This document shows, piece by piece, positions 1 to 15,195 of a stretch of 19,720 nucleotides of DNA (its first letter is position 1; the number at the start of each line of letters is the position of its first letter). The notes below the pieces were generated by a model, which saw only the letters and a list, made by a program, of their open reading frames with translations, was not told the DNA's origin and did no database searches. The DNA is from a virus (lineage: Duplodnaviria; Heunggongvirae; Uroviricota; Caudoviricetes), in IMG/VR virus record IMGVR_UViG_2541047897_000009; one strand, 5' to 3'. Both the position numbers and the translations under genes were made by a program.

Positions 1-1254
1 ATGCCAAAACTCACAGATATGCAGATCCGCGCATGGATAAAGGCGGGAGACAGATTTGATGGCAAGGCAGACGGCAACGGCCTTTATATTTGCTACCCCA
101 AAAACTACACAGTCCCGTTCTGGCGATTCCGCTATAAGCTCGCAGGAAAGCAGCGGGCTATGGTTATAGGCTCTTACTCCGAACTGTCACTATCAAAAGC
201 CAGAGAAACAGCAAAAGAGCTGTCAGCCAGAGTTGCTCTTGGCTATGACGTAGCAGCAGAGAAACAGGAACGAAAAGCTGAAGCACTGGCAAAAATGGAG
301 GCTGAGAAAAACGCCATACGCGTTTCAGATCTGGCCGCCGAATACTTCGAGCGCCAGATACTTCCGAGATGGAAACATCCCGATATCCTTCGCCGGAGAA
401 TTGATAAGGATATTAACCCCTGCATTGGGCATATGAAGGTAGAGGACGTTAAGCCACGCCACATTGACGACATGTTGAAAGGTATCGTTGACCGAGGAGC
501 ACCAACGATAGCAACAGATGTATTACGCTGGACACGCCGTATCTTTGACTATGGGATAAAACGCCACGCTCTGGAGATAAACCCTTGTTCAGCGTTTGAA
601 GTATCTGATGCTGGTGGTAAAGAGGTTTCCCGCGACCGTTGGCTAACTCGCGATGAGCTTATCAGGCTATTCGAGGCTATGCGCACCGCAAAAGGATTCA
701 GCCGCCAGAACGAACTGACATTTAAGCTATTGCTGGCACTATGCGTTCGTAAGATGGAGTTATGCGCCGCACGATGGGAAGAGTTTGATTTAGATGGTGC
801 GGTATGGCATTTGCCGGAAGAACGCAGCAAAAACGGAGACCCTATTGATATACCTCTACCTTCCCCAGCCGTTGAATGGTTGAGAGAGCTACACACCTTT
901 TCATGTAATAGCGCATGGGTGCTTCCAGCCAGGAAAATGCAAAACAGAATGATCCCACATATTCAGGAAAGCACTTTACCCGTAGCACTGGCTAAGGTTC
1001 GCGCCGAAATGCCGGATGTGCCTAATTTCACGATTCACGACTTCCGACGCACCGCACGTACTCATTTAGCAGCGTTGGGTGTTGATCCTGTCGTGGCGGA
1101 ACGATGCCTCAATCATCGCATTAAGGGCGTAGAGGGGATTTATAACCGCCATCAGTATTTTGATGAGCGTAAAGCAGCACTGGCACAGTGGGCTGATCTG
1201 CTGGTGGCACTGGAAAGCGGAAAAGACTACAACGTGACACCAATTAGAGCATGA
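1..1254 (+). CDS. int: Tyrosine site-specific integrase, P4 / CP4-57 type
   Basis: 417-aa ORF; N-terminal P4-integrase-like domain (FWRFRYKLAGKQR); C-terminal catalytic signature HDFRRTARTHL and GIYNRHQY (H-x-x-R ... Y). Confidence 0.93.
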   Translation: MPKLTDMQIRAWIKAGDRFDGKADGNGLYICYPKNYTVPFWRFRYKLAGKQRAMVIGSYSELSLSKARETAKELSARVALGYDVAAEKQERKAEALAKMEAEKNAIRVSDLAAEYFERQILPRWKHPDILRRRIDKDINPCIGHMKVEDVKPRHIDDMLKGIVDRGAPTIATDVLRWTRRIFDYGIKRHALEINPCSAFEVSDAGGKEVSRDRWLTRDELIRLFEAMRTAKGFSRQNELTFKLLLALCVRKMELCAARWEEFDLDGAVWHLPEERSKNGDPIDIPLPSPAVEWLRELHTFSCNSAWVLPARKMQNRMIPHIQESTLPVALAKVRAEMPDVPNFTIHDFRRTARTHLAALGVDPVVAERCLNHRIKGVEGIYNRHQYFDERKAALAQWADLLVALESGKDYNVTPIRA

Positions 1255-1272
1255 TGGGAGGAGAGATTCATA

Positions 1273-2223
1273 ATGAAATTACCTGCGCATAAATATTATT
1301 CTTTGGATAAAGCAGCCAAACTGGCCGGATGTGAAGTATCCGATTTAATACACTATGCAGCAATTGGGGTTTTAGAAATATGCACAAAGATTCCACCTAT
1401 TGAATTGTTTTACCATTACCCAAAAGATGAAAATGCCGAGCCAGAATTACTTAAAGTTGAAACAGATAGCTTTTTCGATATAGATGAGAAAGTGGCAAAT
1501 GAGAACTACCTTCTTGGACTGAGCGATAATATAGATGATCCTGAATCATATGGATTATCATCCCTTGATGACAAAAATGACGATAACCACCTGTATTTTA
1601 TTAGATTTTCATACAAATCAGAGCATTTTTCAGTTATAGAGCGATACAATGTCGGAAAGGATAAAAGAGAGATAGAAAGATGGTGCGGTCTATTAGCAAT
1701 TCCTCCTGCATTCATAGATAACGATGAGCGAGAGCTATCAGAATGGGATGATTGGGAGATTTCAGTATGCGAATTGACGCCGCCAAGATGTGACGATTTT
1801 TATAAATCGCCGGATTATGAAATCGGAACTTTTTATATTGACGGATGGTATGAAGTAAGCCGGAACAAAATGTATATAACTGATTATGAATTCAATCTCC
1901 TTATCAATGGAGGAAGATATATTTATGATAAACCCATGCACAAGCCTTCTGCAAACAAGTTATCCAATGATATAAACACGTTGAAAGTCAATAAACGTGC
2001 CGAACGACACGCTGTCAATAGGGAGAAACTATTAAAATCTGCAATTTATATACTTAGTAAGTATCCAGATGAATGCAGAGGAGAAAGGAAAGAAATAAGC
2101 CCGGAAAAGTGGCGTGACTGCCTTGTTCGGCATTTAGGCGAAGTTCCACCACTTATGATAACTAATGAAGATGTAATTCTTAAACATCTACGAGCTGCGG
2201 CAAATGGCAAAGTAGATAGTTAA
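1273..2223 (+). CDS. Hypothetical protein, 316 aa, AT-rich; N-terminal HTH-like motif (AAKLAGCEVSDLIHYAAIG), acidic middle, unknown C-terminal domain
   Basis: Long ORF 19 bp after int stop; markedly lower GC than flanking genes; same position as yfjH in CP4-57 (int-yfjH-alpA), homology unverified. Confidence 0.7.
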   Translation: MKLPAHKYYSLDKAAKLAGCEVSDLIHYAAIGVLEICTKIPPIELFYHYPKDENAEPELLKVETDSFFDIDEKVANENYLLGLSDNIDDPESYGLSSLDDKNDDNHLYFIRFSYKSEHFSVIERYNVGKDKREIERWCGLLAIPPAFIDNDERELSEWDDWEISVCELTPPRCDDFYKSPDYEIGTFYIDGWYEVSRNKMYITDYEFNLLINGGRYIYDKPMHKPSANKLSNDINTLKVNKRAERHAVNREKLLKSAIYILSKYPDECRGERKEISPEKWRDCLVRHLGEVPPLMITNEDVILKHLRAAANGKVDS

Positions 2224-2329
2224 CTTACTATAGAGGTACTGCAAAAATACAGTACCTTTTCATTGTATATCTATACAGTTAGTTTTCTCGTAACGAAGCA
2301 ACAACTATCGTTAAGAGGTTACGGGAAGC

Positions 2330-2533
2330 ATGAACACTGACACTATTCCTACAAAAGGCTATATCAGACGCTTCCGCCTGGCTGAATTGCTGGGCGTTAG
2401 TGTATCCACCATCGACCGTAAAGTAAGAAACGGTTCACTACCACGTCCGGTAAAGCTGGGAGAAAAAATAACTGCGTTTGATGCGGTTGAGATTCACAAC
2501 TGGCTGGCAGAACGCCGCGGGAAGGTGGCCTGA
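2330..2533 (+). CDS. alpA: AlpA-family HTH transcriptional regulator / excisionase-like
   Basis: 67 aa; motif RLAELLGVSVSTIDRKVRNGSLPRPVKLG typical of AlpA/Xis HTH proteins. Confidence 0.88.
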   Translation: MNTDTIPTKGYIRRFRLAELLGVSVSTIDRKVRNGSLPRPVKLGEKITAFDAVEIHNWLAERRGKVA

Positions 2534-2964
2534 TGGAAAAGAAAAACCGCCCATTACAGGCGGCTAATTCAGATATTCGCGTATCTGATGTTACGCCCCT
2601 TACAAAATCCCTTCAAGCACCAAAGCGCACACCGAAAAAGCATCGTGCCCGAGTCTATATGCTGCGTACTGGTATAGAGGGATGGACAGAAAATGACATT
2701 CTTCGCTACTGCCGTCTGTCTTCTGGTCGTAACTATGCAACAGAGTTAGAACGCCAGCTTGGAATCACTCTGGAGCGTATCGACGAAAAGAATCCTGATG
2801 GTATCGGAACACACCTCCGCTACCGTTTTTCCTGCCGTGGTGATGTTCTGAAAGTGATCACTCATGTTAACCATCTTGCGAACATAAATGATCACAACGG
2901 ACTTTCTCAGCAGGAAATTGCCGACATTCTGAAACTCTACCCGGACGCGTTTAACGCCGCCTAA
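2533..2964 (+). CDS. Hypothetical protein, 143 aa
   Basis: ATG overlaps alpA stop (TGATG), implying translational coupling; basic N-terminus. Confidence 0.65.
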   Translation: MEKKNRPLQAANSDIRVSDVTPLTKSLQAPKRTPKKHRARVYMLRTGIEGWTENDILRYCRLSSGRNYATELERQLGITLERIDEKNPDGIGTHLRYRFSCRGDVLKVITHVNHLANINDHNGLSQQEIADILKLYPDAFNAA

Positions 2965-2976
2965 CGGAGACTGAAA

Positions 2977-3810
2977 ATGAACATCGAAAAAAGCAGATTA
3001 ATTTCTGAGGCCGCCCCTCATCCGAACGCCTCTCTGGGCACAATTAACGGTAATGAATTTGCCGCAATTGTCCCGGTTATTCCTGGTCATATCGGTGGGC
3101 GTGAAACCAATATTGTTAGCGCAAAAGCGTTACACAAAGCGTTGGGCGTGGGAAAAGACTTCTCTACATGGATCACTGATCGCATCTCTGAGTATGACTT
3201 CACCATTGGGCGCGATTACTCAGTCCATAAAACAATTTCCCCAAATTTGGGGAAAAGCCCGAATGGCGCGGCTTACAGCAAGATTAAGCAGTCTGGCAGA
3301 CCCGGTAAAGACTATCTGTTAAGTGTCGGAATGGCGAAAGAACTGGCAATGATCGAACGCAATGATCAGGGTCGCGCTATCCGCCGTTATTTCATCCAGT
3401 GCGAGGAAGAATTACAGCGTAGCGTGCCTGAAATCGCCGCCCGCTATCGTCGCCAGCTAAAAGCCCGTATCAGTGCCGCAAACAACTTTAAGCCAATGTG
3501 CGATGCGCTGAATATGGCCCGTGCCGAGATGGGTAAAACGACGCAGCAACACCACTACACAAACGAGAGCAATATGATTTCTCGTATCGTTCTTGGTGGG
3601 CTAACTGCTAAGCAGTGGGCGCGGATAAATGGCTATTCTGGCGAACCTCGCGACCATATGAACGCAGAACAGCTTGAGCACCTCTCATATCTCGAAAGCA
3701 CCAATATCACGTTAATTGATATGGGCATGGAATATGAGCAGCGCAAAGGAGAACTCACCCGCCTGTCGCAACGCTGGCTCGCTAAGCGTCTGGAGGCGGT
3801 CCATGTTTAA
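2977..3810 (+). CDS. Phage antirepressor (AntA-like N-terminal domain + KilA-C/AntB-like C-terminal domain)
   Basis: SAKALHKALGVGKDFSTWITDRISEYDFTIGRDY matches the AntA pattern; KDYLLSVGMAKELAMIERNDQGRAIRRYFIQCEEEL matches the KilAC pattern; GGAGA RBS. Confidence 0.85.
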   Translation: MNIEKSRLISEAAPHPNASLGTINGNEFAAIVPVIPGHIGGRETNIVSAKALHKALGVGKDFSTWITDRISEYDFTIGRDYSVHKTISPNLGKSPNGAAYSKIKQSGRPGKDYLLSVGMAKELAMIERNDQGRAIRRYFIQCEEELQRSVPEIAARYRRQLKARISAANNFKPMCDALNMARAEMGKTTQQHHYTNESNMISRIVLGGLTAKQWARINGYSGEPRDHMNAEQLEHLSYLESTNITLIDMGMEYEQRKGELTRLSQRWLAKRLEAVHV

Positions 3811-3985
3811 GCCGACAGGAACACCACAACCTCAAAAACGCTACAAAGATGCCCACGGAGCACTCGTTACTGTCGAAAGCGTGTCTCACAACCGAGTGAC
3901 GTTTTATCGCGACGGGTATCAATCGCCATGCGTACAACCGCTGGCACGTTTCATGAAGGAGTTCGCGGAGGTTAACAAATGCTAA
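3803..3985 (+). CDS. Small phage protein, DUF4222-like (60 aa)
   Basis: Start ATG at 3803 overlaps antirepressor stop (ATGTTTAA); sequence MFKPTGTPQPQKRYKDAHGALVTVESVSHNRVTFYRDGYQSPCVQPLARFMKEF recalls the DUF4222 pattern. Confidence 0.6.
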   Translation: MFKPTGTPQPQKRYKDAHGALVTVESVSHNRVTFYRDGYQSPCVQPLARFMKEFAEVNKC

Positions 3986-4478
3986 CCGCCCAGAAGAAGA
4001 TATTTTCACTGGCCGATATGTCGCCAAAATCCAGCAATATGACAGCAAAATCAGGCATTAATACAGCAGATGCAAGCAAAGTTTATCATTTGCTGGTGGT
4101 AGGAGCGGATGCCTTAACTATGTCAGAAATTACGGTCGATGGTGTTAGCGTTGAGAAGGTCAGCGGCTGCGCCAGAGAATTTCTGGTCGTAGATGGCTTT
4201 CTCTGCTCGCGTAGTGGCTCCACAAAAACCTTCGTCCACACGCGCGACGTTAACGAAATGAGCGCGATGTATTGTGCATCTGGTGCTTCCAATAGTGAGT
4301 TTTCGGAGTCCATAAAAAAGAGCTTGCCGTTATGCGGCAACACGGTTTATGGTTATAAGGCACCTCATAAAACGGGTGCCGGGATTGGCGTCCTGGTAAA
4401 TCGAATGGCGACATATGACGCGCCGAGCGTCTTTTTTTATGTCGTAGGTCTGACTCACCCATTTTTTGGGCGTTGGTG

Positions 4479-4484
4479 TATAAT
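4479..4484 (+). promoter_or_regulatory. Consensus -10 hexamer TATAAT; candidate early promoter of the icd-to-primase operon (poor -35)
   Basis: TATAAT at 4479-4484 preceded by a T-tract; about 155 nt upstream of the icd-like start. Confidence 0.35.
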
Positions 4485-4490
4485 CCAGCG

Positions 4491-4640
4491 CCTTTGTCAA
4501 TCAATGGTGGCTCAGGCAGGGGCTTCTTCGGAAGCGCCGGTATCCATTCGAGCCGGTTACGCCAACCCTGTCTGGGCTACCACCAGCGAAATTGGCGTTT
4601 CCGGTGGTAGCGTTACATGCTATCGAATGGAGGCTGCCAC
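4491..4640 (+). ncRNA. Structured leader; possible P4 CI-like immunity RNA region with seqA/seqB-like repeats
   Basis: UUCG-tetraloop hairpin 4522-4535; 9-bp perfect stem GCTACCACC (4576-4584) / GGTGGTAGC (4603-4611); direct repeats ATGGTGGCT (4504-4512) and ATGGAGGCT (4627-4635), the latter overlapping the icd RBS. Confidence 0.3.
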
Positions 4641-4835
4641 ATGCTGGCTACTACCCCTACCCAAAAACCGCAATTTATCTGGATTATCGCCGCAGTTCGC
4701 CGCGATTGCCCGACAATTACCGCCAAAATTCATCATATTGCTGCCGAGTCTGAACGCGATGCTCGCCGTTCTCTGGTGCGCGATCACGTCTGCTTTTTTG
4801 CTGGTCGTATCCGCATGGAGGTGGCACATGATTAA
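4641..4835 (+). CDS. icd: Host cell division inhibitor Icd-like small protein (64 aa)
   Basis: GGAGG RBS 6 nt upstream; QKPQFIWIIAAVRRD ... ESERDARRSL ... FFAGRI resembles the Icd-like family of P4-type elements (from memory). Confidence 0.6.
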   Translation: MLATTPTQKPQFIWIIAAVRRDCPTITAKIHHIAAESERDARRSLVRDHVCFFAGRIRMEVAHD

Positions 4836-5046
4836 AACCTACGATGTGCATATGGATCCCCTCGAACGCACAAGCCAGATCATCACACTGACAGAAGTGA
4901 TTAACGACATTCTGGTGAGCAACTCTCCCTCACGAGACGAAAGACTGAAGGCGTTACTCGCGATATTGGATCTCGCCGTTCGTGACGTTCATTTCCTGCT
5001 GGAAGGTGGCGAAATGCCAGGAAAAACGGGGGCAACCAATGAATAA
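4828..5046 (+). CDS. Hypothetical small protein (72 aa)
   Basis: GGAGGTGG RBS; ATG overlaps icd stop (ATGATTAA); clean start. Confidence 0.55.
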   Translation: MIKTYDVHMDPLERTSQIITLTEVINDILVSNSPSRDERLKALLAILDLAVRDVHFLLEGGEMPGKTGATNE

Positions 5047-6658: not shown

Positions 6659-7022
6659 AAATGCAGAAATGGCGCTTAGCTCCGCAATCGGAGAGCAGGT
6701 GGCAAAGATTGCTGGCGCTGTGTGGATTCATAACCTTCATTCTACTGGTGAAGAGAAAATGGCAATTCAGACGCCAGAGGGACGCACCATTACTACATCT
6801 CTGAAGGCGTCAGATGTTTGTGATCTGATTTGCGCATTCATGTACCCAGCAATGAGGACTGTCCACGGCGATAAGTGGAAACTTGCGACAACCGCTGAAT
6901 TTGATATGTGGCTAAACAATGATGGCATGCTGACTGATTACGGAATAACCAAGTGGCAGATGCTGGTTAGCCATATCGCAAACGCTATAGACCACGTGGG
7001 GTACGGTGATGCGAAACATTGA
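6651..7022 (+). CDS. Hypothetical protein (123 aa)
   Basis: GGGAGG RBS; 8-nt overlap with upstream gene; overlaps primase start. Confidence 0.6.
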   Translation: MRENAEMALSSAIGEQVAKIAGAVWIHNLHSTGEEKMAIQTPEGRTITTSLKASDVCDLICAFMYPAMRTVHGDKWKLATTAEFDMWLNNDGMLTDYGITKWQMLVSHIANAIDHVGYGDAKH

Positions 7023-9765
7023 TCTTATCCGTCAGGTTATCAGTGCGTCTGAAAACAACTGGCCTCATGTGCTGGGCTGCCTGAACATAAATGTCCCTGA
7101 CTCTCCGCGCCGTCATGCTCCCTGCCCTGCATGTGGGGGCAAAGATCGATTCCGGTTCGATGACAACGGGCGCGGTAGCTTCATCTGTAATCAGTGCGGC
7201 GCTGGTGATGGACTGGATTTAATTAAACGCGTAAATAACTGCGACACAACAGAGGCGGCGCTTCTTGCCGCTGATGTTCTGGGTATTGATTACCGGACAA
7301 CGGAAACACCAGAAGCCACCAGCCAGAAACGGGAACAACTGGAAACCGAGCGCCAGCGACGCGAACAGGAGCGCCTGAAAAGGGCAGAGAAGGACGAACA
7401 ACAAAGACGGGATACGTTTTCCCGTCAGTTTGATGACATGCGCAGAAAGGCTGTAAACGGCAAATCTGATTATCTGGTTGCGAAAGGGGTAGGTGATTTT
7501 ACATTCCCCGTGTTGCCCGATGGATCTCTGTTGCTGGCGCTGGTGGATAAATCCGGCGCAGTAACAGCAGCACAGACTATTACCTCACATGGTGAAAAAA
7601 GACTCCTGACAGGTTCAGCAAAGCGAGGGGCATATCACGCCATAAACGCACCAGAAACAACACAGAGCATCTTAATCGCAGAAGGGCTGGCAACGGCATT
7701 ATCTGCCCATTTAATTCGTCCAGAGGCGCTGACAGTGGCGGCGATTGATGCCGGGAACCTGTTATATGTCGCCCAGGTACTGCGGGATAAATTTCCTTCA
7801 GCACAAATCATCATTGCTGCGGATAACGACCACAGCGAAGGAAGACAAAACACGGGGAGAATAGCAGCAGAAAAAGCAGCTTTATCTGTTTCTGGATGGG
7901 TGGCATTACCCCCGACAGATCACAAAGCAGACTGGAATGATTACCACCAAAAACACGGCATTAAATGCGCCACAGAAGCGTTCAATAAGTCAATGTACCA
8001 ACCACAGGGTAATGGCGTGAAACAGGAGCCACAGACCATTGAGGGAAGCGATTTTAAGGTTATGGATACCGACCCACTGAAACCAAGAATAGAAAGCCGC
8101 GAGGATGGTATTTATTGGGTATCTCCGAGAGCTGACAGCCAGAGTGGAGAAATCATCAATAACGAAAGCTGGTTATGTTCTCCGTTAAGCGTTATCGGTA
8201 CTGGCAGAGACGATAAAGACCAGTATCTCATTCTTCGCTGGCTGTCGTTTGGTTCTGAAACGCCGACAACCGCTGCCATTCCACTGGCTGATATTGGTGA
8301 ACGTGAAGGATGGCGCACACTTAAAGCTGGTGGGGTAAATGTCACGACCAAAAGCAGCCTCAGAGCAATACTGGCAGACTGGCTACAACGCAGTGGCTCT
8401 CGTGAATTGTGGCGTGTTGCTCATGCCACTGGCTGGCAATGCGGAGCGTACATCATGCCTGATGGGGAAATCATCGGAACACCTGAAAATCCTGTGCTGT
8501 TCAGCGGGAGAAGCTCAGCCGCAGCCGGATATACCGTCTCAGGGAGCGCGAAAAGCTGGCGTGATAACGTGGCGCGTCTGGCCTTTGGTAACTATTCAAT
8601 GATGACCGGGATCGGCGCAGCACTGGCAGCGCCATTGATTGGGCTGGTGGGCGCTGACGGGTTCGGCATTCATTTCTATGAGCAGTCGAGCGCAGGTAAG
8701 ACCACCACGGCAAACGTGGCGAGCAGCTTATACGGCAACCCTGATTTACTGCGGCTGACGTGGTACGGAACCGCGCTGGGGCTGGCAAATGAAGCTGCCG
8801 CCCACAATGACGGACTAATGCCGCTTGATGAAGTTGGTCAGGGCGCTGATCCTGTCAGTGTTTCACAGTCTGCCTATGCGTTATTTAACGGTGTAGGGAA
8901 ACTGCAAGGCGCTAAAGATGGTGGAAACCGGGATCTAAAACGCTGGCGTACAGTGGCAATCAGCACCGGAGAAATGGATTTAGAAACATTTATCGCTACT
9001 TCCGGGCGAAAAACCAAAGCCGGGCAACTGGTGCGACTGCTGAATATTCCGTTGAGTAAAGCAGTACGCTTTCACGATTACCAGAACGGAAAACAGCACG
9101 CAGACGCACTGAAAGACGCTTACCAGCATCACCACGGCGCGTCCGGGCGTGAGTGGATTAAATGGCTGGCAGACCACCAGCAACAGGCTATTAAAACTGT
9201 TCGTGATTGCGAAAGCAGATGGAGAAGCCTGATCCCATCCGATTATGGTGAGCAGGTTCACCGTGTAGCCGCGCGATTTGCCATTCTGGAGGCCGCATTG
9301 TTGTTAGGCGAGGTTGTAACAGGCTGGGATGCTCAGACATGCCGTGATGCGATACAGCACAGCTATAACGCATGGTTGCGCGAGTTCGGCACAGGTAACA
9401 AAGAGCATCAGCAGATTATTGAACAAACGGAGGCATTTCTTAATGCCTATGGGCTTAGCCGTTTTGCACCATTTCCATACAGCCCGGCAGATTTGCCCAT
9501 CAAAGATTTAGCCGGATACCGTCAGCGTGGAGAACATGACGAAAGTCCAATGATTTTCTACACATTCCCGGCCACATTTGAAAAGGAGATCGCATGTGGT
9601 TTCAACGCAAAACAGTTTGCTGAAGTGTTGAAAAAAGCCGGGATGCTAACCCCACCAAACAGCGGTCGTGGATACCAAAGAAAATCACCACGTATTCAGG
9701 GACGACAAATAAACGTTTATGTACTCAATTACCAGCCAGGAGATTACAACTCATCTGAAGAATGA
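7009..9765 (+). CDS. Bifunctional primase-helicase, P4 alpha type (zinc-ribbon primase + Toprim + C-terminal NTPase)
   Basis: CPACGG...CNQCG zinc ribbon; Toprim-like ILIAEGLATALS ... IIIAADNDH; Walker-A-like SSAGKTT; 919-aa ORF (GTG 7006 / ATG 7009). Confidence 0.9.
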   Translation: MRNIDLIRQVISASENNWPHVLGCLNINVPDSPRRHAPCPACGGKDRFRFDDNGRGSFICNQCGAGDGLDLIKRVNNCDTTEAALLAADVLGIDYRTTETPEATSQKREQLETERQRREQERLKRAEKDEQQRRDTFSRQFDDMRRKAVNGKSDYLVAKGVGDFTFPVLPDGSLLLALVDKSGAVTAAQTITSHGEKRLLTGSAKRGAYHAINAPETTQSILIAEGLATALSAHLIRPEALTVAAIDAGNLLYVAQVLRDKFPSAQIIIAADNDHSEGRQNTGRIAAEKAALSVSGWVALPPTDHKADWNDYHQKHGIKCATEAFNKSMYQPQGNGVKQEPQTIEGSDFKVMDTDPLKPRIESREDGIYWVSPRADSQSGEIINNESWLCSPLSVIGTGRDDKDQYLILRWLSFGSETPTTAAIPLADIGEREGWRTLKAGGVNVTTKSSLRAILADWLQRSGSRELWRVAHATGWQCGAYIMPDGEIIGTPENPVLFSGRSSAAAGYTVSGSAKSWRDNVARLAFGNYSMMTGIGAALAAPLIGLVGADGFGIHFYEQSSAGKTTTANVASSLYGNPDLLRLTWYGTALGLANEAAAHNDGLMPLDEVGQGADPVSVSQSAYALFNGVGKLQGAKDGGNRDLKRWRTVAISTGEMDLETFIATSGRKTKAGQLVRLLNIPLSKAVRFHDYQNGKQHADALKDAYQHHHGASGREWIKWLADHQQQAIKTVRDCESRWRSLIPSDYGEQVHRVAARFAILEAALLLGEVVTGWDAQTCRDAIQHSYNAWLREFGTGNKEHQQIIEQTEAFLNAYGLSRFAPFPYSPADLPIKDLAGYRQRGEHDESPMIFYTFPATFEKEIACGFNAKQFAEVLKKAGMLTPPNSGRGYQRKSPRIQGRQINVYVLNYQPGDYNSSEE

Positions 9766-9780
9766 GCTTCTTCATGTGCG

Positions 9781-9912
9781 TAGAAAAGGTGTTGGTTCAG
9801 TTGGTTCAGTTGGTTCAGTTGGTTCAATTTGTAAAGAGTATTGTTTTATAAGTATTTTATTCTTTTTATTGAACCAACACTGAACCAACAACACGGTATT
9901 TTGAACCAACAC
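9781..9912. repeat. Iteron block A (ori-like): 4 tandem GTTGGTTCA, AT-rich spacer, 3 inverted TGAACCAAC
   Basis: Direct copies at 9781, 9790, 9799, 9808; inverted copies at 9870, 9881, 9902; immediately downstream of the primase gene. Confidence 0.8.
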
Positions 9913-9960
9913 AATGTGACTGAATTGATGCGCACAACACCTGGCTGGCATCAGAGAGTG

Positions 9961-10035
9961 TTTTACGAGACTTTCGTAAAATCCTGTGTACAAGGGCGTG
10001 ACGTTTTTGAAAGTGAGCACTACGAAATTTTCGTA
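9961..10035. promoter_or_regulatory. Pair of palindromic operator-like sites sharing half-site TTTCGTA
   Basis: TTTTACGAGACTTTCGTAAAA (9961-9981) and perfect palindrome TACGAAATTTTCGTA (10021-10035), centres about 57 bp apart. Confidence 0.4.
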
Positions 10036-10230
10036 GTTCAAAAAACAGCCTCTGAGAAGTTGTTATGCCTGTTCAGCAAACCATCCGCATAGCTGATCGC
10101 GAATCAAATTACCAATGGAGCCAGAAGCAAGGGCAGAACTGAAAAGCGCCTGCCGTGAAGAGTAATGCGACACCATAAATATAGTTTTTAGAGTCCATAA
10201 AAAACCTGTCAAAACCTGACACACAGAACG

Positions 10231-10263
10231 ATGCCACCAGCTACTGAGCGGTGGCATTTTTTT
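10231..10263 (+). terminator. Rho-independent terminator
   Basis: 8-bp GC-rich stem ATGCCACC / GGTGGCAT with 11-nt loop, followed by 7 T residues. Confidence 0.65.
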
Positions 10264-10358
10264 GTGCTATTTGTTTCATATTTTGCAATTACTATGATGA
10301 ATATTGCGATTTGTGAAACTATAATAACTGTTGTTTTATACAGTTCTAAGGGGGCGTT

Positions 10359-10520
10359 ATGGCTATTTCAGTAAAGCCGGTATTGATAAGTGAGAAGCAA
10401 ATGGAAGCGATAAAGAAAATTCAGGAAGAGCAGCGTAAAAAATCAGGAATTGGAGTAGCGCCAACTCTGCATGAAATTGCACGAGGGTTAATAGATAAGG
10501 CGCTGGCAGGCTGTATGTGA
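10359..10520 (+). CDS. Small protein (53 aa), possible ribbon-helix-helix DNA-binding regulator
   Basis: Below the 60-aa ORF-track cutoff; strong RBS AAGGGGG 5 nt before ATG; predicted strand-helix-helix pattern. Confidence 0.5.
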   Translation: MAISVKPVLISEKQMEAIKKIQEEQRKKSGIGVAPTLHEIARGLIDKALAGCM

Positions 10521-10536
10521 AAATGGATGGCATCGC

Positions 10537-10998
10537 ATGGAACTAAAATTTATTGATAACCCTGTGCGATTACAGGCCTTTCTTAACGAGCCAGGCAATA
10601 CCGAAAATATTGTTGAGCCGGGGCACACGTACTACATCAAGCCTGATGCGGTATATCTCGGCATCTACGAAGGATTGGTGCTGGCTGGCGTTCATGAAGT
10701 GCGTAACTTCTGGCATAGCATTGTTGAATGCCATGCGGTGTACGCCCCCGGATTCCGTGGTGAATATGCACTGCAAGGGCATCGATTATTCTGCAAGTGG
10801 CTTCTCGAAAACTCACCATTCCTTAACAGCATTACCATGGTTCCTGACACCACGAAATACGGACGGGCAATTATCCGTTTGCTTGGCGCTACCCGTGTTG
10901 GTCACCTTGATGATGCTTATATCAGATGTGGTAAACCCGTCGGCGTAACGCTTTATCAGTTAACTCGGCAACAATATAAGGAATTCAGCGAATGTTAA
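10537..10998 (+). CDS. Hypothetical protein (153 aa); first gene of a coupled 4-gene operon, possibly a virion/ejection-protein assembly factor (P22 gp14-like by position only)
   Basis: Clean ORF; downstream gene start overlaps its stop (ATGTTAA). Confidence 0.65.
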   Translation: MELKFIDNPVRLQAFLNEPGNTENIVEPGHTYYIKPDAVYLGIYEGLVLAGVHEVRNFWHSIVECHAVYAPGFRGEYALQGHRLFCKWLLENSPFLNSITMVPDTTKYGRAIIRLLGATRVGHLDDAYIRCGKPVGVTLYQLTRQQYKEFSEC

Positions 10999-11669
10999 TT
11001 ACCCACATAGCTCATAAACATCTCAATCGTGCCGTATACGAAAAAGGCGGTGATGGTGGTGCCTCTAAAGCTCAGGCGAAGGCCCAGCAGCAGGCAATTG
11101 ATTTGCAGCGCGAGCAGTGGAATACGGTGATGAATAATCTCAAGCCGTATGCAGAAGTCGGATTGCCTGCTTTACAACAACTACAAGGACTGATGACTCT
11201 GGAAGGGCAGAATAAAGCCGCGAATGATTTCTTTGGTTCTGGTTTATATAAAACACAGGCAGATCAGGCCCGTTATCAGAACCTTGTCTCAGCAGAAGCT
11301 ACCGGGGGGCTTGGCTCAACAGCTACCAGTAACCAGTTATCTTCCATTGCGCCCATGCTTTATAACAATTGGCTTAGTGGGCAAATGCAAAATTATGGAA
11401 ACCTGCTAAATGTCGGGATGAATGCGGCATCAGGGCAGGCAACAGCAGGGCAAAACTACGCCAATAATACCGGGCAACTCTTGCAGGGGCTTGGCGCTAT
11501 TCGTGCAGGTCAGGCGCAGCAGCCATCCAGTCTTGCGCGTGGTATTGGTGGGGCGGCATCAGGCGCTTTAGCGGGTGCGCAACTTGGTTCCGTTGTTCCG
11601 GGTATAGGTAATGTCGCCGGGGCTATTGGTGGTGGGCTTATTGGTCTTGTTGGGGGGCTTGGATTCTAA
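10992..11669 (+). CDS. Putative virion internal / DNA-ejection protein (225 aa; P22 gp7-like by size, order and composition)
   Basis: AAGGAA RBS; Q/A-rich; glycine-zipper hydrophobic C-terminus (GIGNVAGAIGGGLIGLVGGLGF). Confidence 0.7.
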   Translation: MLITHIAHKHLNRAVYEKGGDGGASKAQAKAQQQAIDLQREQWNTVMNNLKPYAEVGLPALQQLQGLMTLEGQNKAANDFFGSGLYKTQADQARYQNLVSAEATGGLGSTATSNQLSSIAPMLYNNWLSGQMQNYGNLLNVGMNAASGQATAGQNYANNTGQLLQGLGAIRAGQAQQPSSLARGIGGAASGALAGAQLGSVVPGIGNVAGAIGGGLIGLVGGLGF

Positions 11670-13090
11670 TGGCGACATGGCAACTTGGCGGGCTGCCTAG
11701 CATGGCACCGCAAAATGATAATGCTCCTCGTTCTTCCGTTCCTCAGCCTGTGCAGTATCAGCAGCAGCCAAACGTAGGTTTAATGGCGCTACAGGGGCTA
11801 AGAGGCGTTGCTGAGATTAATCAGCAGGCACGTCAACAACAGCGTAAAGCAGAGTTTCAGAAAGCATATGCCGGGGCTTTTGAGTCTGGAGACAGAAACA
11901 AAATGCGCAGTCTTATTTCTGAGTATCCAGAAGAATTTGAAAGCGTTCAGAAAGGGATGGGCTTTATTGATGACGACCAGAGAAATTCTATTGGTCATCT
12001 TGCGACTAGTGCTCAAATCGCATCTTCGCTCGGAACTGGGGCATTTGGAAAATTCATAGCAGATAACGAAGATGAAATGCGTCGCTTGGGAATTTCTCCT
12101 GAGTCTGTTGCCGAAATGCATGTTAATGATCCACAGGGATTCCAGCGGCTTGCTGGTAGTATGGCACTGTTTTCTCTCGGTCATGAGAAGTATTTCGATA
12201 TCAAAGATCAAATGGAAGGTCGGGATATTGAGCGTGGCAAGTTGGCAGAAACAATCCGCAGCAATCAGGCTGGCGAAGCACTTCAGGCGAGAGGGCAGGA
12301 TATTAGCCGAGCAAATGCGTTAACGTCAGCATATGCACCAACAGCAGCAATGCAGAATTACAATCAGTACGCTCAAATGTTAAAGGAGGATCCAGAGGGG
12401 GCGGCGGCATTTGCGGCAGCGGCTGGAATTAATACAAACGCCAAAAAATTAATGAGTGTTAGAGAAAACGATGATGGCACTGTCACAAAATACTACACAG
12501 ACGGAAGTGAAGAGCAGGGAAAACTAAACCAGCCAATATCTGGAGATGGGTTTCGTCCAATAGCTTTGCCAACAGCCCAAAAGATCATGGAAAAGTCGCC
12601 AGAAGGGGCTAAAAAAGCTGCTGGATTTGCATACAGAGTTAGGGATGCTCTTGATTCAATGGATACACTGAAAGGCCAGCTTAGCCCACAGCGAGTGGCG
12701 ATCATTAATAATGCTTTGGGTAATGGGACGCTGGCTAACTTAACGCTCAGCCCAACAGAGCAGCAATACGTTGTTAATGCTAATGACGCAATAATGGCAA
12801 TACTCCGTCAGGAAACAGGGGCAGCTATCGTACCTGCTGAAATGTCAAAATATTATCAAATGTATTTCCCTCAGCCTGGCGACTCCACAAAAACCATTGA
12901 TACCAAGCGCCGGAAGATGGAAAACCAGTTCAATTCGCTGAAAGCTGCTTCTGGTCGAGCTTATGATGCTTTGCGGGTTATTTCAGCAGTTGACAGAGGG
13001 ACTTCTTCTTCGTCGCAGACATTGCCGCAATCTGAGCAGGTATCACAGCCAGCAGCCAGCAGTAACTTTTCTTCACTATGGGGTGATTAA
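11669..13090 (+). CDS. Putative DNA-ejection / internal virion protein (473 aa; P22 gp20-like by size and order)
   Basis: TAATG overlap with upstream gene; low-complexity Q/A/S-rich termini. Confidence 0.7.
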   Translation: MATWQLGGLPSMAPQNDNAPRSSVPQPVQYQQQPNVGLMALQGLRGVAEINQQARQQQRKAEFQKAYAGAFESGDRNKMRSLISEYPEEFESVQKGMGFIDDDQRNSIGHLATSAQIASSLGTGAFGKFIADNEDEMRRLGISPESVAEMHVNDPQGFQRLAGSMALFSLGHEKYFDIKDQMEGRDIERGKLAETIRSNQAGEALQARGQDISRANALTSAYAPTAAMQNYNQYAQMLKEDPEGAAAFAAAAGINTNAKKLMSVRENDDGTVTKYYTDGSEEQGKLNQPISGDGFRPIALPTAQKIMEKSPEGAKKAAGFAYRVRDALDSMDTLKGQLSPQRVAIINNALGNGTLANLTLSPTEQQYVVNANDAIMAILRQETGAAIVPAEMSKYYQMYFPQPGDSTKTIDTKRRKMENQFNSLKAASGRAYDALRVISAVDRGTSSSSQTLPQSEQVSQPAASSNFSSLWGD

Positions 13091-15195
13091 TGGCTAAAGC
13101 ATGGAAAGATGTTATCGCCTCTCCACAGTATCAGGCGTTAGCACCAGAACAAAAAGCGCAGGCTCAGGAGCAATACTTCAATGAAGTCGTTGCCCCGCAA
13201 GCCGGAGAAAGTGTAGCGCAGGCTAAGCAGGCTTTTTATGCTGCCTATCCACTACCATCAACGAATGAAATAGACCGATCCCAATCAGCAACTCAAAATA
13301 TTCAACATACATCATCTGATAATTCTCTTGCGTCAGGGTATGCAAAGTTAGCTACTCAGCAAAGAGAGGGGCTTGAGCGTTCAGCAGAACAGGGAGCCAG
13401 CCTTGGGGCTGCGATGCGCGATGCTATAACAGGCGAAAGCCGAATGACTCCAGAGATGGCGAGACTGCAAAATGTCGACCTTGCCCCAGAGTTAACCTCA
13501 CTCAGTATGGATGCTCTAAAAGCTCGATGGTCTCAACTTTTCGGCTCTGACGCATCTCAGGAAAAGATTCTTCAGAGCATGGGAGCGAAATTAAGGCAGG
13601 ATGAGAAGGGTAACACTATCGTTTCCCTGCCATCCGGTGATTATGCTCTGAACAAGCCGGGTTTATCGCCGCAAGACGTGGCATCGTTTCTGGCTAATGC
13701 GCTGGCGTTTACACCAGCGGGCAGGGCCGGAACGGTGCTGGGGGCCATAGGGAAATCAGCAGCTACAGATTTAGCACTACAGGGAGCCACCAGCCTTGCT
13801 GGTGGAGAAGATATTGATCCGTTACAAACGGTAATTTCTGCTGGCATTGGCGGCATTGGTAAGGGGCTGGAGAATACAGCGAGTGCGGTTTCGAGGGCTG
13901 TTCGTGGTGATATGGCACCGGAAGCGAAAGCCGCTGTTGATTTTGCATCGGAAAGAAACCTGCCGTTAATGACCAGTGACGTACTGAAAGATAAAAACAC
14001 TGTGCAGAGTCTGGCCCAGAAAACAGGCGAAAAAATCCCTTTTTTTGGAACGGGTACGAACAGGTTGAATCAACAACAGGCACGGGAAAATCTGGTCAGA
14101 ACATATAACGATGGTCTGGGAGGCATTTCAGATAAACAGCTTTATGAATCTGCGACTAAAGGGCAGCAAAAATTCATTGAGGCCGCAGGAAAGCGATATA
14201 ACCGCATAATTGACGCTATGGGGGATACCCCTGTCGATCTCTCAAACACGGTAAAAGCTATCGACAATCAGATTGCCGTGTTAAGCCGCCCGGGCAAATC
14301 TCAGGATAGAGCCGCGGTAAAAGTCTTGCAGCAATTTAAAGACGATATCACCAGCGGACCAAATGACCTGCGTCTGGCGAGAGAAAACAGAACTGACCTT
14401 CGAAAGCGGTTCATGAATTCAAACGAGACAGTTGATAAAGACACGCTCCAGAAAGCCAGCGATATTGTCTACAAGGCATATACGCTGGATATGAGAAGGG
14501 CAGTAGCCCAGAAACTGGGTTCAGAAGAAGCAGCCAATATGGCAAGGGTCGATCGCTCATGGTCTAAATTCAATGACATGATGGGAAGAACGCGCGTTCA
14601 GAAGGCAATAGCCAGCGGCAAGGCCACGCCTGAGGATGTAACAAAACTCGTTTTTAGCCAAAGCTCATCAGAACGTTCTCAGCTTTACAGGCTTCTGGAT
14701 GACAACGGCAGGCAGAACGCACGGGCAGCCATAATACAGAATGCTGTAGATAAGGCGACTGATTCGGCGGGGAATATCAGCGTTGAGAAGTTTATTAACA
14801 CGCTACACCGGAACAGAAAGCAATCCGCAACGTTCTTTAAGGGCGTGCACGGAAAGGAACTGGACGGCATTATTAAATACCTCAACGATACCAGACAGGC
14901 GGCAAAGGTTGACGGTCAGAAATTAAACAGCCAGAAACTTTATGGCCTGCTGGTTGGTGGAGGCGCTATAAATGCGGCAGTTCTGGCGGGGATGCTGAAA
15001 ACGGCTGCGTTTGTTGTTCCTGCTGCTGGTGCCGTAGGCGGAGCAGCGAAGGCATACGAAAGCCCTGTTATACGAAATGCCTTGTTACGTCTGGCAAATA
15101 CGCCAAAAGGTAGCACAGCATATGACAGAGCGATCAGTACGGTCACACAATCACTGACCACAGCAGCACAAGCATCGCAAAAGGAAGCTCAATAA
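13090..15195 (+). CDS. Putative DNA-ejection / internal virion protein (701 aa; P22 gp16-like by position)
   Basis: TAATG overlap with upstream gene; A/Q/G-rich; hydrophobic glycine-rich segment near C-terminus (GLLVGGGAINAAVLAGMLKTAAFVVPAAGAVGGAA). Confidence 0.7.
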   Translation: MAKAWKDVIASPQYQALAPEQKAQAQEQYFNEVVAPQAGESVAQAKQAFYAAYPLPSTNEIDRSQSATQNIQHTSSDNSLASGYAKLATQQREGLERSAEQGASLGAAMRDAITGESRMTPEMARLQNVDLAPELTSLSMDALKARWSQLFGSDASQEKILQSMGAKLRQDEKGNTIVSLPSGDYALNKPGLSPQDVASFLANALAFTPAGRAGTVLGAIGKSAATDLALQGATSLAGGEDIDPLQTVISAGIGGIGKGLENTASAVSRAVRGDMAPEAKAAVDFASERNLPLMTSDVLKDKNTVQSLAQKTGEKIPFFGTGTNRLNQQQARENLVRTYNDGLGGISDKQLYESATKGQQKFIEAAGKRYNRIIDAMGDTPVDLSNTVKAIDNQIAVLSRPGKSQDRAAVKVLQQFKDDITSGPNDLRLARENRTDLRKRFMNSNETVDKDTLQKASDIVYKAYTLDMRRAVAQKLGSEEAANMARVDRSWSKFNDMMGRTRVQKAIASGKATPEDVTKLVFSQSSSERSQLYRLLDDNGRQNARAAIIQNAVDKATDSAGNISVEKFINTLHRNRKQSATFFKGVHGKELDGIIKYLNDTRQAAKVDGQKLNSQKLYGLLVGGGAINAAVLAGMLKTAAFVVPAAGAVGGAAKAYESPVIRNALLRLANTPKGSTAYDRAISTVTQSLTTAAQASQKEAQ

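Follow-up and report, generated by a model that had tools for sequence, protein, structure and literature searches.

Probable anti-repressor gene relics and a predicted intrinsic terminator between the replication and cargo genes of an EcCIMP1-like island of Escherichia coli

We consider here a short intergenic interval (positions 9913-10263) of the virus record IMGVR_UViG_2541047897_000009, a stretch of 19,720 nucleotides that we call the window. The window is an EcCIMP1-like phage-inducible chromosomal island (PICI) of Escherichia coli: within ~20 kb it encodes an integrase, an AlpA-family regulator and a primase-helicase with an adjacent iteron origin, and it is without capsid or terminase genes. 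A 601-bp query (window 9760-10360) is 100% identical to a chromosomal island of E. coli strain P4, which is integrated between yicC and dinD. The gene order starts with a tyrosine integrase, a Phage_AlpA regulator, an AntA anti-repressor and an 'ash' region that contains the Rfam isrK and C4 RNAs; the ash region is followed by a Toprim/DUF927 primase-helicase gene (7006-9765) and then by the iteron origin. On the 3' side of the interval lie a 53-aa open reading frame (ORF) and homologues of P22 gp14 (DUF2824), gp7, gp20 and gp16, with PerC and a Doc-type toxin encoded further downstream. An earlier note on this DNA, made from the letters alone, had pointed to an operator-like pair of palindromes and a strong terminator in the interval and had suggested a small RNA gene or a control point for regulated read-through. 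What we find is a mosaic of non-coding leftovers that is mostly ordinary, that is, gene relics and a terminator in a known kind of satellite (Table 1). We think it likely that the interval forms the non-coding end of the replication operon, composed of decayed gene fragments and an intrinsic terminator, and that the palindromes are relics of an anti-repressor gene.

Table 1. Features of the interval and its surroundings, in window coordinates
Feature	Position	Strand	Description
Replication origin	9789-9912		Four direct GTTGGTTCA iterons (9791-9826), degenerate fifth to 9835
Origin, right part	to 9912		AT-rich spacer, then three inverted TGAACCAAC copies (9869-9912)
Palindrome 1 (TTTTACGAGACTTTCGTAAAA)	9961-9981	+	Non-random; probable second relic of the anti-repressor motif; at a mosaic junction
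Relic of phrog_1726 anti-repressor, N-terminal domain	9997-10109	+	Found by blastn, tblastn and profile hidden Markov model
Palindrome 2 (TACGAAATTTTCGTA)	10021-10035	+	Relic codons TAC GAA ATT TTC GTA (Y-E-I-F-V)
Decayed 3' end of accessory ORF	10107-10178	+	Reads YQWSQKQGQN*KAPAVKSNATP*; in-frame stop
22-mer AGTTTTTAGAGTCCATAAAAAA	10183-10204	+	Identical to a nucleotide-constrained element in CUS-3-type small-terminase genes; candidate pac mimic
Small hairpin TGTCA-AAACC-TGACA	10207-10221	+	Within direct repeat AAAACCTGTC/AAAACCTGAC; kept in FLI21 as TTGTCA/TTGACA
Intrinsic (Rho-independent) terminator	10231-10263	+	8-bp G+C-rich stem, 3-bp inner extension, ACTG loop, 7-T run
Inverted repeat GTTTCATATTTTGCAAT / ATTGCGATTTGTGAAAC abutting TATAAT	10273-10325	+	Likely operator and -10 box of the 53-aa-ORF/cargo operon

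Both palindromes, with their common half-site TTTCGTA, are present where the earlier note had placed them. Palindrome 1 can be written as TTTTACGA-GACTT-TCGTAAAA with the core TACGAGACTTTCGTA at 9964-9978, and a search of the 19.7-kb window for TACGAAATTTTCGTA with up to two mismatches returns exactly these two sites, where 0.02 are expected from 200 shuffles. Dyad symmetry and a repeated half-site, as would be expected of an operator, are therefore there. Palindrome 2, however, is decayed coding sequence. In blastn against phage genomes, 10007-10108 matches the interior of intact genes of ~230-240 aa in Klebsiella and Shewanella phages (E 7e-13); tblastn recovers RDVFESEHYEIFVVQKTASEK (9997-10059) and then, in another frame, VVMPVQQTIRIADRES (10059-10109); and a profile hidden Markov model (HMM) built from 53 distinct members of the family, which PHROGs assigns as phrog_1726, 'anti-repressor', ranks the two pieces first and second among all 1147 peptides from a six-frame translation of the window. 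Because these pieces are contiguous in the profile (49-69 and 73-89) and in the DNA, yet lie in different frames, we read the segment as a frameshifted, truncated relic that covers profile positions ~49-89 of a ~240-aa protein. An intact gene of the family also lies in the immI region (arc/mnt/ant, beside the tailspike gene) of an E. coli P22-like prophage. The relic is homologous to codons ~45-88 of phrog_1726 genes such as those in the immI region of the ET826 prophage and in Klebsiella phages phiKp_30 and ZX1; unlike them, it has lost three codons, shifts frame near 10056-10065, runs into a stop at 10090-10092, is without a start codon and the C-terminal two thirds, and is unannotated. Significant homology to intact members and a disrupted, truncated frame, the two marks of a pseudogene, are thus both found. 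Attempts to extend the homology leftwards to a start codon (9913-9996) were unsupported by tblastn or the profile HMM, and the corresponding upstream sequence in the sister islands of the 99-3165 type, described below, is also unlike the N-terminus of the family.

Why should a gene relic look so much like an operator? In intact phrog_1726 genes, as compared across phage loci L002-L004, L006 and L015-L094, the codons for Y-x-x-x-V always spell a palindrome, in the versions TACGAAA/TTTCGTA, TACAAAA/TTTTGTA and TACAC/GTGTA, and a relic of such a gene is operator-like for that reason. TAC, GTA and the preceding GAG are invariant in 53 of 53 sequences, whereas neighbouring synonymous sites vary freely; GAA/TTC or AAA/TTT co-vary, and a hypervariable loop segment begins at the palindrome, which may act at the DNA level in the phages themselves. 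The string GAGCACTACGAAATTTTCGTAGTT is nucleotide-identical in intact genes; palindrome 2 itself is unchanged in those of the E. coli P22-like prophage and of Klebsiella phages, and the Shewanella phage gene differs from it at the centre base only. Palindrome 1, which reads TTT TAC GAG ACT TTC GTA AAA TCC (FYETFVKS), agrees with the allele of the L073 type (TTT TAC AAG ATT TTT GTA AAA CCC, FYKIFVKP/FYKIFVKPS) at 25-26 of 33 nt by a hand count. We propose that the palindromes would not be operators of this island and would instead descend from the short palindromic motif within the phrog_1726 coding sequence (Y-E/K-x-F-V). The source of palindrome 2 would be an allele of the YEIFV type, and that of palindrome 1 probably one of the YK(I/T)FV type; that palindrome 1 is a second relic copy of the motif is probable, and it is the less certain of the two assignments. 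The frameshifted gene fragment would end after ~40 codons of homology, with the dead 3' end of another accessory ORF coming next.

Sister islands offer a natural test of what the palindromes are needed for. The S1-KEN-07-A island has the origin and cargo of the window, diverges after 9968, inside palindrome 1, and is without palindrome 2; in place of 9969 to ~10100 it carries an intact 152-aa ORF, whose counterpart of the decayed 3' end reads YPWNQEQRENRKAHAMKSNATP*. In FLI21, an island that differs from the window in its primase, its iterons and its cargo, the shared sequence is limited to 10202-10358, a segment that holds the terminator, the inverted repeat, TATAAT, a ribosome-binding site and the small ORF. 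Islands of the 99-3165 type have a third replicon and origin and are common to the window from ~9955 rightwards. Because these three kinds of island swap pieces independently, the palindromes are linked to neither the origin nor the cargo promoter, and because islands without one or both palindromes keep the terminator, the inverted-repeat/TATAAT region and the cargo operon, the palindromes are, as judged from this comparison of sequences, dispensable. The proposal that they are operators is accordingly not supported: they are absent from FLI21 and replaced in S1-KEN-07-A although the promoter region and first ORF are retained there, no promoter lies near them, and one must go ~285 bp downstream to reach a conserved -10 box, which has an inverted repeat of its own. 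Population variants also weaken the dyad of palindrome 1 (C->T in 99-3165, T->C in ETEC1749). In a further relative, E. coli strain J6 (L009, NZ_CP195973.1, 4215-5478), an IS3-family element has taken the place of everything past the equivalent of ~10126, and an Abi-family gene stands in for the cargo.

The statement that the interval holds no convincing ORF stands: in strain P4, where the locus is identical, RefSeq has no coding sequence from the end of the primase gene to the 53-aa ORF, and the open frames are short, without ribosome-binding sites and disrupted by indels in sister copies, the longest by a 1-nt indel. A consensus scan of 9600-10600 returned no sigma-70-like promoter, and an Rfam scan of the interval returned no family at the gathering score and none at E<=10.

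At the right end of the interval, the call of a strong intrinsic terminator is well founded, with a stable G+C-rich hairpin and a run of seven Ts in the predicted fold. The stem pairs ATGCCACC (10231-10238) with GGTGGCAT (10250-10257), the T run occupies 10257-10263, and the fold has a predicted energy of -25.1 kcal/mol (z = -6.8 against shuffles); the T-run is found on the + strand only, the minus-strand hairpin being without one. Among E. coli copies the main stem and the T-run are invariant, with changes confined to the loop or the inner stem, and in FLI21 both arms are changed and the sequence still folds (-13.8 kcal/mol). Where the 53-aa ORF has relatives in Leclercia (two species) and in Pantoea, a hairpin and T-run of different sequence occupy the same position, directly upstream of the conserved inverted repeat. 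It is thus confirmed that the terminator lies where the replication module gives way to the cargo operon. Since other genera have unrelated terminators at this position, the one in the island could plausibly act as a boundary or as a control point for read-through, and the strongest sign that termination here is under selection is this conservation of position. Transcription from the long + strand operon, which runs from the AlpA gene to the primase, would halt at the hairpin, which we infer to be a working stop between the replication and cargo genes and one that would insulate the cargo operon. Terminators that separate modules in phages and satellites are likewise G+C-rich hairpins with a U-run that follow a co-oriented gene block and precede a separately controlled promoter; what differs here is that the predicted fold pairs the U-run with an A-rich run upstream, a pairing that could tune how efficiently transcription stops.

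The cargo operon, comprising the 53-aa ORF and the P22 gp14, gp7, gp20 and gp16 homologues, would be driven by its own promoter region just downstream of the terminator. Here the inverted repeat (10273-10319 by itself) abuts TATAAT, a good -35 is lacking, and both repeat and TATAAT are conserved in E. coli, Leclercia, Pectobacterium and Pantoea (repeat consensus ATTTCATxTTTTGCAAT ... ATCATTGCxTTTxTGAAAC). This conservation indicates that the cargo operon has its own control region, and because the consensus promoter scan was empty, the cargo promoter probably needs a factor that binds the inverted repeat. When the 53-aa protein was modelled by AlphaFold from its single sequence, the result (predicted local distance difference test score, pLDDT, 77.6) had a disordered N-terminus and two helices; the model is compatible with a ribbon-helix-helix fold, an assignment that is unconfirmed, and a Foldseek search of it against the PDB gave no significant match. 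The suggestion that this ribbon-helix-helix-like protein binds the palindromes is unsupported; the inverted repeat conserved with its gene lies downstream. We treat the likeness of TTTCATA in that repeat to the half-site TTTCGTA as chance: it spans 7 nt in AT-rich DNA, and the arrangement is opposite. As for the cargo itself, 10537-15195 encodes homologues of the full set of the P22 ejection-protein module, including a gp16-like protein with a transglycosylase part, carried here by a satellite without capsid or terminase genes; sister islands have other cargo instead (peptidase M41, Abi).

The closest described relative of the window is EcCIMP1 of E. coli MP1, which is induced by the P22-like phage Kapi1, a Lederbergvirus, and transferred at very low frequency (PMC11773190). 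The EcCIMP1 intergenic region is 99% identical to window 9760-10365, the genes for the integrase, AlpA, AntA, the ash region, the Toprim/DUF927 primase, the 53-aa ORF, DUF2824, the DNA-transfer proteins and PerC are in identical order, and the 53-aa proteins are identical. The two islands differ in integration site (tRNA-Thr near proA in MP1, yicC-dinD here), in iteron number and by one base change in the terS-like motif discussed below. The EcCIMP1 paper states the packaging mechanism as unknown and does not cover the intergenic region (PMC11773190). Of 5426 complete E. coli genomes, 455 have at least 80% of window 9913-10358 and 524 have parts of it.

Several observations weigh against our reading of the interval as relics and a terminator. 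The interval is near-invariant among hundreds of E. coli copies, which says little either way because the island is just as similar throughout. For palindrome 1, the proposed homology to the anti-repressor motif comes from a comparison of just 33 nt; the similarity of the two palindromes to each other is far beyond chance, and the palindrome in intact phage genes looks nucleotide-selected, such that a residual DNA-level role of the palindromes, for example as a decoy or recombination site, may exist. Additionally, the terS-like 22-mer in the interval does not descend from the genes that left the relics, and it may be functional. Could the palindromes then still be bound, as operators or decoys, by some dimeric DNA-binding protein, such as one that recognises the anti-repressor palindrome of the helper phage? 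Symmetry and a shared half-site beyond chance, the maintenance of the palindrome in intact genes through co-varying codons and invariant wobble bases, and the presence of the anti-repressor gene in helper-type P22-like prophages are all in keeping with this idea. We nevertheless find it improbable, given the distance from any promoter, the loss or truncation of the palindromes in sister islands with the same cargo module, the variants that weaken palindrome 1, flanks decayed as those of a pseudogene would be, and a centre-to-centre spacing of 57 bp, which puts the two sites on opposite faces of the helix. That the palindromes are parts of the origin, either extra initiator sites or an unwinding element, strikes us as highly implausible: they lie 50-120 bp from the iterons, but they are unrelated to the iteron sequence, and the segment follows a different origin (GGTACAGGT iterons, with a different upstream gene) in 99-3165-type islands and is absent beside an identical origin in S1-KEN-07-A. 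A segment that travels with different replicons is ruled out as an origin element.

The terminator raises two further alternatives. A small RNA that ends at it, either ~70 nt long and starting near 10192 behind TATAGT (10180-10185) or a processed 3' fragment of the operon, could account for the strong hairpin with its U-tail, for the TATAGT hexamer and the A-rich single-stranded stretch upstream, and for the fact that 10173-10263 is common to several island types. TATAGT, however, has no acceptable -35, does not register in the promoter scan and is not retained in the Leclercia relative; there is neither a promoter of the RNA's own nor a known family or a conserved structure beyond the terminator, and the pieces of the interval recombine independently. 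The small RNA gene that the earlier note had put forward is therefore not borne out, and we regard any small RNA here as quite improbable. Regulated read-through, which would extend our explanation of the interval rather than replace it, deserves more consideration. An antitermination-modified RNA polymerase, dependent on the AlpA-family protein or on Q of the helper, might bypass the terminator, a possibility that we entertain only tentatively, and cargo expression might by this means be coupled to induction of the replication operon, for which our confidence is equally low. Two operons of the same orientation directly flank a strong terminator, and a Phage_AlpA protein is encoded in the island and Q in the helper Kapi1; AlpA is the master regulator in EcCIMP1 (PMC11773190), and AlpA of P. 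aeruginosa is a processive antiterminator with which RNA polymerase bypasses an intrinsic terminator (PMC7969949, PMC9371919). On the other hand, no AlpA-binding element or Q-utilisation site was identified, the conserved inverted repeat and TATAAT of the cargo operon suggest separate control, and antitermination is known for the P. aeruginosa AlpA and not for the AlpA of E. coli PICIs. In P. aeruginosa and with lambdoid Q, as here, a terminator separates promoter-proximal from distal genes, but here it is ~8 kb from the alpA region and not directly downstream of a promoter, so we use the comparison as a working analogy.

The 22-mer was an unexpected find in the interval. It ends 26 nt before the terminator stem, and AGTTTTT(N)GAGTCCATAAAAAA is recurrent in relatives. 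A scan of IMG/VR for TTTTNGAGTCCATAAAAA gave at least 120 exact matches (loci L099-L218), where a rough estimate of the chance expectation is about ten; among the matches listed, most lie inside CUS-3-type small-terminase (terS) genes, in codons for F-L/F-E-S-I-K-K-G. To guard against ascertainment bias, the terS family was resampled by an independent motif, IFWLKNRQ, and 81 distinct genes were found to carry the corresponding peptide. In this sample Glu is encoded by GAG in 63 of 63 cases (background 44%) and Ser by TCC in 68 of 68 (background 9%, the rarest Ser codon); Ile/Leu/Val is NTA in 77 of 81, and Lys is AAA in 66 of 79. The core occurs at this one terS position in 53 of the sampled phage contigs (~1 Mb searched) and nowhere outside terS; the one further match is also in terS, at a shifted offset. 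Codon bias and single position together point to a DNA- or RNA-level element embedded in terS, and the core, GAGTCCNTAAAA, occupies one fixed position of CUS-3-type small-terminase genes in phages of Proteobacteria and Firmicutes. In satellites, by comparison, the copies are non-coding: a second copy in the window (4301-4318) lies 42-59 nt upstream of isrK, where 0.10 copies are expected by chance, an arrangement of motif and then isrK that recurs in six other contigs; a Leclercia island has two copies, and IMG/VR locus L200 has three in tandem.

Pac sites of P22-type phages lie within terS (gene 3 of P22), which is why we find a pac mimic the most attractive reading of the 22-mer, and satellite copies of helper pac sites are familiar from the Staphylococcus aureus pathogenicity islands (SaPIs). 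A second precedent is that of the PICI-like elements (PLEs) and phage ICP1 (PMC11417361). Our suggestion, which we offer as a possibility and with reserve, is that the 22-mer may be a satellite packaging signal, a copy of a previously undescribed pac-site core, and that satellites with such copies may be packaged by helpers with a cognate TerS. Like pac sites, the element lies inside terS, is constrained at the nucleotide level and is present as a single copy in the phage contigs of the sample, and like satellite pac copies, those in satellites are identical, non-coding and sometimes tandem. A unique constrained site in helper-type terS genes is thus found; however, the TerS of Kapi1, the sole helper known from experiment, is of the Sf6 type and lacks the motif, and a pac role leaves the isrK-linked copy unexplained. 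Three observations are consistent with the suggestion: the EcCIMP1 motif has A in place of a T that is found in 81 of 81 sampled terS genes, EcCIMP1 transfer by Kapi1 is described as 'extremely low' (PMC11773190), and CUS-3-type terS is found in 395-481 of 5426 E. coli genomes (~7-9%). Among the matches listed, the island and a CUS-3-type terS prophage occur together in two genomes, which is not significant. Other explanations of the 22-mer fared less well. A relic of a terS gene is ruled out, as the identity is confined to the 22-mer and the flanks are unrelated, and neither an UP element of a promoter nor a -1 frameshift site (A AAA AAG) suits coding and non-coding contexts alike; a literature search for the motif string gave nothing relevant.

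Some further observations were made around this motif and elsewhere in the island. In NZ_CM177019.1 (L008, 3950-4070), a copy of window 4240-4318 is joined to a copy of 10204-10245 exactly at the terS-like motif, which looks like a recombinant between the two motif copies with the intervening DNA deleted. In non-coding copies (window 4324-4340, minus strand, and several IMG/VR loci), a hairpin usually comes after the A-run of the motif, so that the opposite strand has a terminator-like hairpin with a T-run and then ATGGACTC. A 29-codon hydrophobic ORF on the minus strand (MDSKNYIYGVALLFTAGAFQFCPCFWLHW, 10113-10201) begins within the reverse-complemented motif, with an ATG for which EcCIMP1 has TTG; S1-KEN-07-A is ~70% divergent over this region, and the ORF is probably due to chance. 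At the origin, near-identical islands (L005, L336) vary in having four or three direct GTTGGTTCA copies, and EcCIMP1 has an extra 10-bp inverted unit. Finally, isrK (4360-4437) and the C4 antisense RNA (4500-4587) lie inside the 355-aa ORF at 3979-5046 that RefSeq calls 'ash family protein', and in EcCIMP1 an Icd-like gene follows directly downstream. The segment resembles a P1-type immI (c4-icd-ant) immunity module, and the call of a coding sequence there is probably wrong.

For those who read satellite genomes, the interval is a reminder that a decayed gene can mimic an operator pair, and no new regulator is indicated by it. What emerges is the modular layout of EcCIMP1-like islands, namely an origin, a variable slot for junk or accessory sequence, a terminator, a conserved inverted-repeat promoter and the cargo, and this layout is useful for annotating the ~500 E. 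coli genomes that carry the element. Two by-products may prove the more important, namely the codon-independent palindrome inside phage anti-repressor genes and the 22-mer. As for the 22-mer, a constrained element in a widespread terS family that recurs in satellites is a testable candidate for PICI packaging, and, if true, its reading as a pac mimic would explain the very low transduction of EcCIMP1 by Kapi1, with the T->A change in the motif on one side and the Sf6-type TerS on the other.

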